Virus record (IMG/VR): IMGVR_UViG_2579778622_000009
Direction: 5' to 3' (one strand)
Length of the DNA: 4,023 nt
From: a virus
Taxonomy: Duplodnaviria; Heunggongvirae; Uroviricota; Caudoviricetes
The position numbers and the translations under genes are program-made. Shown piece by piece: positions 987 to 3,446 of this stretch. A model generated the notes under the pieces. It was given only the letters and a program-made list of their open reading frames with translations. It was not told where the DNA came from and did no database searches. Each line of letters opens with the position of its first letter. Positions within the stretch are counted from its first letter, which is position 1.

Positions 987-1370
987 ATGCGTGATATTCA
1001 GATGGTTCTTGAGCGTTGGGGAGCGTGGGCGGCTAATAATCATGAAGATGTGACCTGGTCGTCCATTGCCGCCGGTTTTAAGGGATTAATTCCTTCAAAA
1101 GTAAAATCTCGCCCACAATGTTGTGACGATGACGCGATGATCATTTGCGGGTGCATGGCCCGTCTGAAAAAGAACAACAGCGATTTGCATGATTTATTAG
1201 TAGATTATTATGTAGTCGGTATGACATTCATGTCACTGGCAGGTAAGCATTGCTGCTCTGATGGTTATATCGGGAAAAGGTTACAGAAGGCTGAGGGCAT
1301 AATTGAAGGGATGTTAATGGCATTAGATATCCGGTTAGAGATGGATATCGTTGTTAATAACTCTAATTAA
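987..1370 (+). CDS. quuD: Q-like late-gene transcription antiterminator (QuuD-like), 127 aa
   Basis: ATG at 987 is preceded by GGAG at 976-979; the ORF-track GTG at 972 is probably an over-extension. The product [24 protein letters not shown]... carries Cys clusters ([15 protein letters not shown]) consistent with a zinc-binding Q family. It sits in the canonical spot upstream of the late promoter region and lysis genes. Stop TAA at 1368-1370. Confidence 0.85.
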
Positions 1371-1390
1371 TATGCCAATTGTTTACTAAA

Positions 1391-1421
1391 AATTATTAAA
1401 AATGGGGCGTTGAGACGCCCC
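1391..1421 (-). terminator. Rho-independent terminator on - strand, likely ending the nmpC transcript
   Basis: Perfect 6-bp GC stem GGGGCG (1404-1409) / CGCCCC (1416-1421) with loop TTGAGA. Read on the - strand it is followed by ATTTTTAATAATTTTT (complement of 1391-1403). On the + strand it is followed by CAAAAATAAA, so it is orientation-specific for the - strand. Confidence 0.5.
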
Positions 1422-1440
1422 CAAAAATAAAGGGTAATAT
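1410..1440 (+). promoter_or_regulatory. Candidate Q-dependent late promoter (pR'-like): -35-like TTGAGA at 1410-1415, -10-like TAATAT at 1435-1440
   Basis: Found by eye about 40-70 bp downstream of the Q stop, where lambdoid pR' normally lies. The 19-bp spacer is suboptimal. A -10-like TTTATATAG at about 1451-1460 in the presumed initial transcribed region could act as a sigma-dependent pause element. Boxes are inferred, not verified. Confidence 0.25.
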
Positions 1441-1509
1441 ATAACAGAAGGTTTATATAGTTAGAAGCAAGGTTGTGCTTCTAAAGGAAGTGGCTTGAGG
1501 GAGCCACTT

Positions 1510-1550
1510 ATATGTTGGGGAGGCAAAGCCTCCCGCAACATATCTTTTTC
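1510..1550 (+). terminator. Rho-independent terminator on + strand (tR'-like), ending the short late leader transcript
   Basis: Stem 1510-1524 (ATATGTTGGGGAGGC), loop AAA, stem 1528-1543 (GCCTCCCGCAACATAT) with one bulged G, followed directly by CTTTTTC at 1544-1550. The U-tract is present only in the + orientation. Confidence 0.5.
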
Positions 1551-1559
1551 GTAATCAGA

Positions 1560-2642
1560 TTAGAACTGATACACCAGACCTACAGCGACGATGTCGTCGG
1601 TATCAATACCAGCTGTTTTGGTAAACTTACTATCGTCAATTAAGTTGATTTTGTAATCAACAAAAGTGGACATGTTTTTATTAAAGTAGTAAGTAGCACC
1701 GACATCGACATACTTGACTAAGTCTCGGTCACCATGAACACCAAGGTCTTTACCTTTTGACTGAAGGTAAGCAACAGATGGTCGCAGACCGAAGTCAAAC
1801 TGATATTGTGCTACTGCTTCAAAGTTTTGTGCTTTGTTTGCAATATGGTTATTACCAAAAACGGTCATATTCTGAGTTTCAGAATATGTGGTAGCCAGAT
1901 AGATATTGTTCGCATCATATTTCAGGCCTGCAGCCCATACTTCCGCATTTTTGCCGGAGGCATTGAATTTGCTCTTACCATAGGCGACCTGACCGTCAGT
2001 GCGATCTGATTTAGCATAGGTTGCACCCACGCCGAATCCTTCATACTCATAAGTAGTGGAGAAACCGAAACCATCACCATTGGCTTCAGTTACGTCAGTG
2101 CGGTCATTTTTACCCTGATACTGAGCAGCAAAGTTCAGGCCATCGACCAGACCAAAGAAGTCGTTGTTACGATAGGTTGCAACACCAGTGGTGCGACCAG
2201 TCATGAACACATCTGTTTGGGTCCAGGTATCGCCACCGAATTCTGGCAGAACGTCAGTCCACGCACCGATGTCGTATGCTACACCGTAGTTACGGCCGTA
2301 ATCGATTGAGCCGTAGTCACCGAATTTCAGGCCTGCAAATGCAAGACGGGTTTTGTCTTTGGAGGAACCTTGAGATTCAGCGCGGTTGCCTTTGAATTCA
2401 TATTCCCACTGACCGAAACCAGTCAGTTGATCGTTGATTTGGGTTTCACCTTTGAAGCCAAGACGGGCATAAGTAGTATCACCATCATCTGCATCGTTAG
2501 AGGAAAAGTAGTGCTTGGCATTAACTTTCCCGTACAGATCCAGCTTGTTACTGTCTTTATTATAAATTTCAGCTGCCTGAGCAGACATCGCCATCAGTAC
2601 TGATGCAGCTACAGCAGAAATTGCCACTGTTAATTTTTTCAT
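1560..2642 (-). CDS. nmpC: Outer-membrane general porin, OmpC/OmpF/PhoE family (NmpC/Lc-like), 360 aa precursor, apparently intact
   Basis: N-terminal signal peptide [23 protein letters not shown] followed by the mature start [17 protein letters not shown], typical of enterobacterial porins. Aromatic/Gly-rich beta-barrel composition. C-terminal ...VGLVYQF with terminal Phe, the beta-barrel assembly signature. Start codon complement CAT at 2640-2642, stop complement TTA at 1560-1562. Confidence 0.92.
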
Positions 2643-2760
2643 CGTGAGCCCTTTTTTTTGAACTATTATTAAAAAATGATGTCACTGCGCGATAAATATT
2701 CATCTAATCAATGTGATTATTTCAAGATGTAAGTTTTAGTTTCTCATTTAATTTGTGAAG
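2643..2760 (-). promoter_or_regulatory. nmpC translation-initiation region and probable promoter/5'UTR (exact boxes uncertain)
   Basis: On the - strand an A-tract plus AAGGG lies just upstream of the ATG (complement of 2643-2660). A candidate -35 TTGAAA is at the complement of 2720-2725. The region is extremely AT-rich. Transcription start not determinable from sequence alone. Confidence 0.25.
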
Positions 2761-3230
2761 TAGATCTCTATTTTTATCTGAACTTTTTCTATCGAAACCT
2801 ATTTATGGCTCTTATTTGAACAAAAATAAACCTATTAGCTAATTTATATTAATGGCTGTTATTTATGGGGGTTCTATAATTCGGTGGTTTAATTTAAATC
2901 AACTAAAAATAACGCCGGAAATTATTTATTGGTTATTTGTTGAGGTTTTCTTATATATTTGTGGTGGTGTTTTGAACACTCGGTAGCATTCTCATAAATA
3001 TCATTCAGTGGTTTACGTACGTAAAAAATTGGTTATGCTGTTAAGAGTGGTTACTTCGTCACACAGCTTAAACCCGCCGTCGAGCTGGTTTTTCCATTTT
3101 TTGAGTCTCGATATTAGCTGATAACTCAATACCTGAGTTATTCACTGACTCCGAGTCTGTTACGTTTCTGCTTTTTTGCGATACGTTGTATTCCCTCAAT
3201 TTACACCCGCTTTGTCTGCGAGGTGGGGTT

Positions 3231-3446
3231 ATGAAATCCATGGATAAGTTAACAACGGGTGTCGCCTATGGCACCTCAGCAGGTAGTGCCGGTTACTGGT
3301 TTTTACAGCTGCTCGATAAAGTCACGCCCTCACAGTGGGCAGCAATAGGTGTGCTGGGTAGCCTGGTATTTGGCCTGCTGACGTACCTGACAAACCTTTA
3401 TTTCAAGATTAAAGAAGATAAGCGCAAGGCTGCGAGAGGTGAATAA
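3231..3446 (+). CDS. essD: Class II pinholin (phage 21 S-like) with dual-start motif, 71 aa
   Basis: RBS GAGGTGGGG at 3220-3228 and ATG at 3231. The product [71 protein letters not shown] has two transmembrane segments and a basic C-terminus. Met1-Lys-Ser-Met4 gives two in-frame starts (3231 and 3240), as in holin/antiholin pairs. The ORF-track start at 3186 is probably an over-extension. Confidence 0.9.

Follow-up and report, generated by a model that had tools for sequence, protein, structure and literature searches.

What does a short, hairpin-dense gap between a phage antiterminator gene and an opposed porin gene encode, and on which of its strands? The question is raised by positions 1371–1559 of a 4,023-base stretch of DNA (the window), which represents the late-control region of a DLP12-type lambdoid prophage of Escherichia coli. 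This 189-bp gap (the interval) separates quuD (987–1370, plus strand), which encodes the antiterminator Q, from the gene of an nmpC/lc-type phage porin (1560–2642, minus strand). An original prediction, made from the sequence of the window, had assigned it a function on both strands: the plus strand would carry a late leader that Q can modify, ending in a terminator, and the minus strand the nmpC 3′ untranslated region (3′UTR), with an RNA like the porin-repressing IpeX and a terminator of its own. We consider it highly probable that the interval is the 3′UTR of the prophage porin gene nmpC/lc on the minus strand, that is, the known small RNA (sRNA) IpeX. This explanation includes a model of direct pairing with host porin mRNAs, which, taken by itself, we judge to be close to evenly balanced and, if anything, slightly less probable than its opposite.

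The minus strand and the small RNA IpeX

The work on IpeX is reportedly that of Castillo-Keller et al. in 2006, known to us via reviews. According to these, IpeX is an RNA of DLP12 and phage PA-2 that arises from the porin promoter within the porin transcript, is then processed, and lowers OmpC and OmpF; its length, 167 nt, is given in a review table. When the interval was compared with K-12 DLP12 (NC_000913), with phage 434B, which carries DLP12 DNA, and with PA-2 (J02580), all 189 of its 189 nt aligned at 99.5% identity. Between the stop codon of nmpC (1562) and the U-tract that follows hairpin H1 (1396–1398) lie 165–167 nt. Because the interval has the same sequence as DLP12 and PA-2, and because the stop-to-terminator distance fits a 167-nt RNA, we identify its minus strand with IpeX. 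The IpeX equivalent is placed at 1395–1562 on the minus strand (about 167 nt, from the stop codon to the H1 U-tract); the RNA would extend from about the nmpC stop codon at 1562 to about 1396 and, following the literature, would be made from the porin promoter and then trimmed.

The features that characterize IpeX were all found here: the position between the porin stop codon and Q, the porin strand, the Rho-independent terminator and the length of about 167 nt. Nothing structural sets the element apart from IpeX of DLP12 and PA-2; compared with that of K-12, it belongs to another E. coli haplotype, in which the porin gene is intact. The minus-strand half of the original prediction therefore stands, given the 99.5% identity, the H1 terminator with its U5 tract and the fitting length, and the identity of this strand is already known. 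A search of the whole window against Rfam at E values of 1 or below gave no match, with neither an IpeX family nor a match to MicC or MicF, and the RefSeq annotation of K-12 (NC_000913.3) contains no ipeX feature. This reflects missing curation and not an absent RNA.

Hairpins and terminators

An inverted-repeat search recovered all four hairpins that had been predicted in the interval. H1 (1404–1410/1415–1421) has a 4-nt loop and lies where the original prediction had placed it, at 1404–1421, but its stem comprises 7 bp, six of them G–C pairs, rather than 6 bp of GC. H2 (1461–1469/1476–1484) is the predicted perfect 9-bp stem, the 3′ arm of which ends at 1484 and not at 1485. H3 (1488–1495/1502–1509; 8 bp, perfect) and H4 (1510–1524/1528–1543; 15 bp, bulged at G1535, −22.2 kcal/mol) have the positions and lengths anticipated for them. 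On the minus strand, H4 is the 5′-proximal hairpin of IpeX, and H2 and H3 belong to the body of the RNA. A weak fifth hairpin, made of A–U pairs only (1438–1444/1453–1459, minus strand), was also found as an inverted repeat and is seen in both minimum-free-energy and ensemble folds.

The two outer hairpins face in opposite directions. On the minus strand the G+C-rich 7-bp stem of H1 is followed by A+U5 at 1403–1398, and this element (1398–1421, −12.5 kcal/mol) was matched by a terminator scan; H1 is the canonical minus-strand intrinsic terminator of nmpC/IpeX. H4 is followed by C+T5 at 1544–1549 on the plus strand. Tail scores bear out the predicted asymmetry of the T-tracts: H1 scores 2.45 on the minus and 0.04 on the plus strand, whereas H4 scores 0.24 and 2.36, respectively. 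The arrangement does not amount to a single bidirectional terminator: read on the plus strand, H1 is flanked by an A-tract at either end, and H4 has a T-tract on the plus-strand side only. H1 and H4 are two separate one-way hairpins about 120 nt apart.

All stems consist of pure Watson–Crick pairs and therefore fold on either strand, as had been proposed for the inner hairpins. Folding of both strands, which the original prediction had called for, gave structures far more stable than those of dinucleotide shuffles (n = 200): −66.9 kcal/mol for the plus strand (shuffle mean −41.7, z = −5.87) and −65.1 kcal/mol for the minus strand (shuffle mean −34.4, z = −7.13), with 0 of the 200 shuffles as good in either case.

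Distribution and variation

The interval is present at 90% identity or more in 2,516 of 5,426 complete E. coli genomes, where its median copy number is one. Every one of the 36 phage records in which it occurs has it at full length and together with the porin; no homologue was found in porin-less phages. Four phages with the same Q but other cargo (ev087, 2E9, 4B5 and IdasGreatGrand) lack it. Conversely, in the degenerate remnants that strains SF-166 and muskdeer13-4 carry near fliE/yedK, Q, the block containing the Q-dependent late promoter (PR′) and the lysis genes are gone, and the porin gene and the interval are kept at about 90% identity. The interval stays with the porin gene, not with Q.

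The four same-Q phages lose homology to the window at 1346, eight codons before the quuD stop codon, and in ev087, the only one of them that was checked directly, homology returns only at 3220. For these reasons, we regard 1347–3219, including the interval, as a replaceable porin cassette. The last eight codons of quuD (1347–1370) are part of what was swapped in, the ev087 homology ending at 1346. The step from 1346 to 1347 is a fixed recombination joint, and the cargo beyond it differs by phage: the porin here, blc/ybgA in ev087.

Among 30 haplotypes, the most variable parts of the interval are the H1 loop (3 of 4 sites), the H4 loop and bulge (2 of 4, with the bulge sometimes deleted) and the H2 loop (2 of 6). 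Stems vary at about 10–14% of their sites, and the core of the candidate seed discussed below (1425–1453) varies at 2 of 29 (7%). Pairing was retained in 99.6% of pair cells on the minus strand and 98.3% on the plus strand; for H2 the figures are 100% and 94.8%, with T1480C, found in 12 of the 30 haplotypes, producing a G·U pair on the minus strand and an A·C mismatch on the plus strand. Stem changes that are G·U-compatible on one strand only number six for the minus strand and three for the plus strand, a difference that is not statistically significant. The pattern of single changes leans towards the minus strand. Double compensatory changes in stems were not seen among these haplotypes, the divergence of which is too low. 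In the degenerate remnants, 9 of 33 sites beyond the minus-strand terminator differ, whereas no change is seen in the U-tract and H1 stems (25 sites), the seed core (29) or the H4 stems (30); the plus-strand T-tract after H4 has decayed to TTT.

These data also bear on whether the palindromes act as DNA, either as protein-binding sites or as the recombination joint of the porin cassette. The interval does adjoin the junction at 1346, and a data-mining paper lists Fur and IpeX as a regulator–sRNA pair, inferred from the location of a DNA-binding-protein motif. However, the variation is that of RNA hairpins, with loops and bulge varying or deleted, stems kept and wobble-compatible transitions; the terminator geometry is canonical; and the element, with its median copy number of one, is no dispersed repeat. 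A role confined to DNA is thus very improbable.

A distant BLAST search with the interval found nothing under 90% identity except truncations. Scanning genome contigs for the H4 core returned only unrelated terminators of other phyla, the pattern being that of a generic G+C hairpin. Across 80 viral contigs the interval is 94–100% identical and the porin coding sequence 85–100%. The greater conservation of the interval fits diversifying selection on the surface loops of the porin and constraint on its 3′UTR.

The late promoter

The plus-strand half of the original prediction holds that the interval contains a QuuD-responsive late promoter and leader, with H4 as the terminator tR′, on the strand opposite to the IpeX 3′UTR. 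The position favors this: the interval directly follows Q, as PR′ does in lambda, 21, 82 and Stx (Shiga toxin) phages. H4 with its C–T5 is terminator-like on the plus strand, and two hexamer-like words, TTGAGA (1410–1415) and TAATAT (1435–1440), could suggest a promoter. The two hexamers are, however, 19 bp apart, and a promoter scan found no σ70-like promoter scoring 9/12 or better on the plus strand of the interval.

The closest Q, 79% identical to QuuD, is that of the Stx2 phage VT2-Sakai. The sole plus-strand promoter-like site after Q in VT2-Sakai is TTTACG-16-TATCAT (L089:702–729). Position 736 lies 7 nt past this site, and a strong terminator ends at 994, 258 nt further. This agrees with a study by differential RNA sequencing (dRNA-seq) and Term-seq, in which PR′ and tR′ directly follow Q and 258 nt separate the start from the 3′ end; the coordinates of that study are those of an older version of the record and were matched through this internal consistency, not through a coordinate table. 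The VT2-Sakai PR′ block aligns to 3012–3095 of the window, in the 588-bp gap between nmpC and essD (2643–3230). The PR′ homologue (3012–3046, plus strand) features a −35 element TTTACG at 3012–3017, a −10 element TATGCT at 3034–3039 and a putative start at about 3046. The core motif after the start of the homologue, AAGAGTGGTTAC, occurs once in the window, at 3043. The block is nearly invariant across 83 related loci; its conserved part spans −35 to about +50 and is common to VT2-Sakai, SfII and cdtI, and in the latter two it likewise comes after a minus-strand cargo gene. Judged by this homology, the Q-dependent late promoter homologue is at 3012–3046, 1.64 kb downstream of quuD and beyond the porin cassette.

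The proposed late leader is thereby lost to the interval. No promoter passed the scan in the region, the mapped PR′ of a Q21/Q933W-family phage aligns outside it, and it is absent from phages with the same Q and kept where Q is gone, every carrier phage record also having the porin. None of the marks of a Q cassette, namely a σ70 promoter, homology to PR′ and co-inheritance with Q, was found in it. As for a terminator on the Q strand, H4 with T5 fits in this haplotype, with T4 or T3 in relatives, such that the T-tract is not conserved, and it precedes an opposed porin gene instead of late genes. We consider a late leader in the interval highly unlikely. A promoter directly after quuD was also sought by analogy with ev087; the shared 9-mer ATATAACAG and the TAAT- and TTAGAA-like words differ in spacing, and we judged the resemblance to be due to chance.

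Several observations concern the leader downstream of the PR′ homologue. A hairpin followed by two T-runs (3072–3102, plus strand; CCCGC/GCTGG, T5 then T6), conserved in SfII, cdtI and VT2-Sakai, is the sole terminator-like element from PR′ to essD. In the window, T3086 creates a C·U mismatch in this hairpin (−3.8 kcal/mol); G stands at this position in roughly half of the related loci, among them those of K-12 type (−10.0 kcal/mol). With no other terminator-like element ahead of essD, the weakened hairpin may allow B-type prophages a leakier expression of their lysis genes. Stx phages have the same hairpin at +24 to +50, yet their reported 3′ end is at +258. The leader also contains a 16-nt indel, CTGCTTTTTTGCGATA (3168–3183), which some 40% of related loci lack, the 434B haplotype among them.

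Upstream of the −35 element, at about 2970–3011, there is weak similarity to the 3′ end of a Q933W-type Q gene, and in VT2-Sakai the Q stop codon sits within the PR′ spacer; it seems that Q and PR′ overlapped ancestrally and were parted by the porin cassette. In ev087 a different short region directly follows Q (L005 4550–4680), with the words TATCAT and TAGAAT and without the AAGAGTGGTTAC block, and its post-Q terminator, GCCAGCCTCCCCAAAGGCTGG-T8, resembles tR′ of Stx phages. Closely related Qs of the QuuD subfamily may use different leaders. Relative to the PR′–tR′ cassettes of Q21/Q933W phages, including the PR′ leader RNA StxS, the window has the same Q family and a homologous block; it differs in the 1.6-kb porin cassette between Q and PR′ and in the absence of the Stx-type tR′ at +258.

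H4 on the plus strand

If the interval is not a late leader, H4 could still act on the plus strand. The two outer hairpins could form crossed one-way terminators, with H4 ending read-through from quuD or the early right transcript, and H1 ending nmpC. The resulting 3′UTRs would overlap by about 150 nt and be fully complementary, and the tail of quuD could protect nmpC against antisense transcription or base-pair with IpeX. The geometry suits this: each T-tract lies on the far side of the interval from its own gene, the stability and tail score of H4 make it about equal to H1 as a terminator in this haplotype, and H4 lies close to the left end of the porin cassette, the junction of which is defined (1346). 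Against it, the T-tract after H4 is T4 in 14 of the 30 haplotypes and T3 in the Q-less remnants, and the base of the H4 stem consists of four A–U pairs followed by C, which would be poor for release. The H4 stems are intact where no Q lies upstream, so their conservation needs no plus-strand role. Crossed terminators, which are compatible with the IpeX reading on the minus strand, are possible but in our view the less probable case.

The IpeX reading accounts for H4 as a hairpin of the sRNA, and a plus-strand role is not needed to explain it because the T-tract decays and the stems are kept without Q. On the plus strand, the interval would be only the untranslated tail after quuD, where H4 with T5 may stop quuD read-through into antisense nmpC. 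As a secondary idea, a quuD transcript that ends at H4 is a possible natural antisense partner of IpeX. An open reading frame (ORF) on the plus strand, 1512–1643 (43 codons, antisense to the end of nmpC; 'ORF1' in PA-2, 'hypothetical' in 434B), is most likely no gene: its start ATG is inside the H4 stem, and in 14 of the 30 haplotypes the T5-to-T4 indel brings an in-frame TAG after 13 codons.

Predicted pairing with ompC and ompF

To ask how IpeX might lower host porins, we considered the A/U-rich stretch between H2 and H1 (1424–1458, minus strand), a conserved and mostly unpaired candidate seed. Within it, 5′-AACCUUCUGUUAUAU-3′ (1453..1439) is predicted to form 15 bp with 5′-AUAUAACAGAGGGUU-3′ of K-12 ompC, covering the Shine–Dalgarno sequence, and 5′-CCUUUAUUU-3′ (1433..1425) a further 9 bp with AAAUAAAGG of ompC. 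The segment UAUUACCCU (1439..1431) is predicted to pair with the Shine–Dalgarno sequence of ompF. The loop of the weak hairpin at 1438–1459 displays the anti-Shine–Dalgarno motif ACCUUCUG and is unpaired with a probability of about 0.9; across the seed loop and flank this probability is 0.6–0.99.

The strength of the pairing was assessed by comparing the unpaired IpeX segment with 4,363 decoy windows of enterobacterial and phage DNA. The predicted IpeX–ompC duplex comprises 24 bp (ompC −32 to −2; −26.7 kcal/mol, z = −4.8), its 15-bp and 9-bp parts covering −32 to −7 of ompC, and only one decoy was as good. Positive controls in the same test, MicC–ompC and MicF–ompF, gave −26.5 and −27.4 kcal/mol, respectively. 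The predicted IpeX–ompF duplex reached −18.8 kcal/mol, a value equaled by 68 decoys, and pairing with the leader of the phage's own nmpC was not significant (−14.3 kcal/mol, 507 decoys). When full-length IpeX was co-folded with each of the leaders, all four hairpins persisted and the 1424–1458 stretch formed the intermolecular helix.

The seed resembles those of known porin regulators. The IpeX site consists of both halves of the MicC 5′ seed, GUUAUAU and CCUUUAUU, with AUUAC in between; the insert creates the complement of the ompF Shine–Dalgarno region, and IpeX shares AUUACC with MicF. As for MicC and MicF, the prediction is that of a short, accessible segment complementary to the translation-initiation region of a porin mRNA, with equal duplex energies. 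The MicC and MicF genes are not homologous to IpeX overall, the 7-nt and 8-nt seed halves being all that is common. Unlike theirs, the IpeX seed is internal and 3′-proximal, is split by a 5-nt loop and extends over the Shine–Dalgarno sequence, and it would hit both porins with one stretch. IpeX is also a 3′UTR product of a phage porin mRNA, whereas MicC and MicF are free-standing genes next to a porin gene.

A less likely alternative is that the interval contains 3′-end elements acting in cis only, a terminator and exonuclease blocks that stabilize the porin mRNA. Repression of OmpC and OmpF would then be indirect, through competition for Hfq or for the envelope or secretion machinery, and the complementarity would be left over from a porin leader that was once captured. 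Some reviews deny that IpeX is complementary to ompC or acts through base pairing, and its effect on ompC is reported to be independent of Hfq; another review describes base-pairing-dependent regulation by IpeX for some targets. The plus strand of 1425–1453 does resemble the ompC leader, which could reflect ancestry and not function. The longest exact complementary runs, 10 nt for ompC and 9 nt for ompF, are found in 1.6% and 5.7% of decoys, respectively. In contrast, the full bipartite duplex is matched by a single decoy and equals the MicC and MicF controls. The duplexes cover the Shine–Dalgarno sequences of exactly the two reported targets and not that of the phage's own porin. Few parts of the interval vary as little as this stretch, which decaying remnants retain without change and part of which is displayed in a loop.

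We favor, though tentatively and at just under even confidence, a model in which IpeX is a direct antisense regulator with a composite MicC- and MicF-like seed at 1424–1458. In this model, IpeX would repress host OmpC and OmpF by pairing of this stretch with the Shine–Dalgarno regions of ompC, overlapping the MicC site, and of ompF, and would spare the phage porin mRNA. The model may or may not be new.

Gene layout and neighboring features

The window begins with ybcO, rusA and ylcG, followed by quuD, the product of which matches Pfam PF06530 (E = 8.5e-54) and belongs to the Q21/Q933W family of antiterminators; RefSeq annotates the gene as quuD. The porin gene is intact and encodes 360 amino acids, and RefSeq and phage records name its product OmpC/NmpC/Lc. 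The holin gene essD (3231–3446, plus strand) is the first late gene served by PR′, and rrrD and rzpD come after it. Positions 1300–1620 match E. coli B-type genomes at 100% identity and, over the part that aligns, K-12 at 98.6%. Compared with prophage morons and sRNAs derived from 3′UTRs, the porin cassette is textbook-like and without notable difference: an autonomous minus-strand unit at a fixed junction at the end of Q, with its own terminator and a regulatory 3′UTR RNA.

The depositors of the PA-2 record annotated two CRP/CAP sites between lc and the lysis genes (1434–1454 and 1730–1750 of that record). These correspond to the gap between nmpC and essD in the window, in the porin promoter region upstream of the PR′ block. 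Insertion sequences (IS) recur in the porin gene or its 3′UTR: BL21 has IS1 within nmpC, K-12 has IS5 58 nt before the stop codon, and strain JB2 has an IS5-like element within the interval, after position 1434.

Discussion

Some points weigh against our reading of the interval as IpeX with a pairing seed. The putative 167-nt boundaries of the RNA are set by the match in length. The plus-strand terminator score of H4 is as good as that of H1, which makes a plus-strand role possible. Reviews deny both IpeX–ompC complementarity and action by pairing, at odds with the bipartite complementarity to ompC and ompF predicted here. Finally, the stems are supported by conservation and by loop and bulge variation only, the asymmetry of six against three strand-specific changes being not significant.

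The interval rediscovers a known prophage sRNA, IpeX, and its terminator. In DLP12-type prophages, which occur in almost half of the complete E. coli genomes, a 1.6-kb porin cassette separates Q from the Q-dependent late promoter, and this placement matters for annotating and engineering these late regions. For 20 years, IpeX has been listed as acting without base pairing or by an unknown mechanism; the ompC/ompF pairing model makes the question testable and, if true, overturns the review statement that IpeX is without complementarity to its targets. It would also give lysogenic conversion a simple logic, in which a prophage supplies its own porin and silences the host porins through the tail of the same mRNA. 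The receptor of phage PA-2 is OmpC; silencing of ompC combined with the supply of Lc would then be a form of superinfection exclusion.

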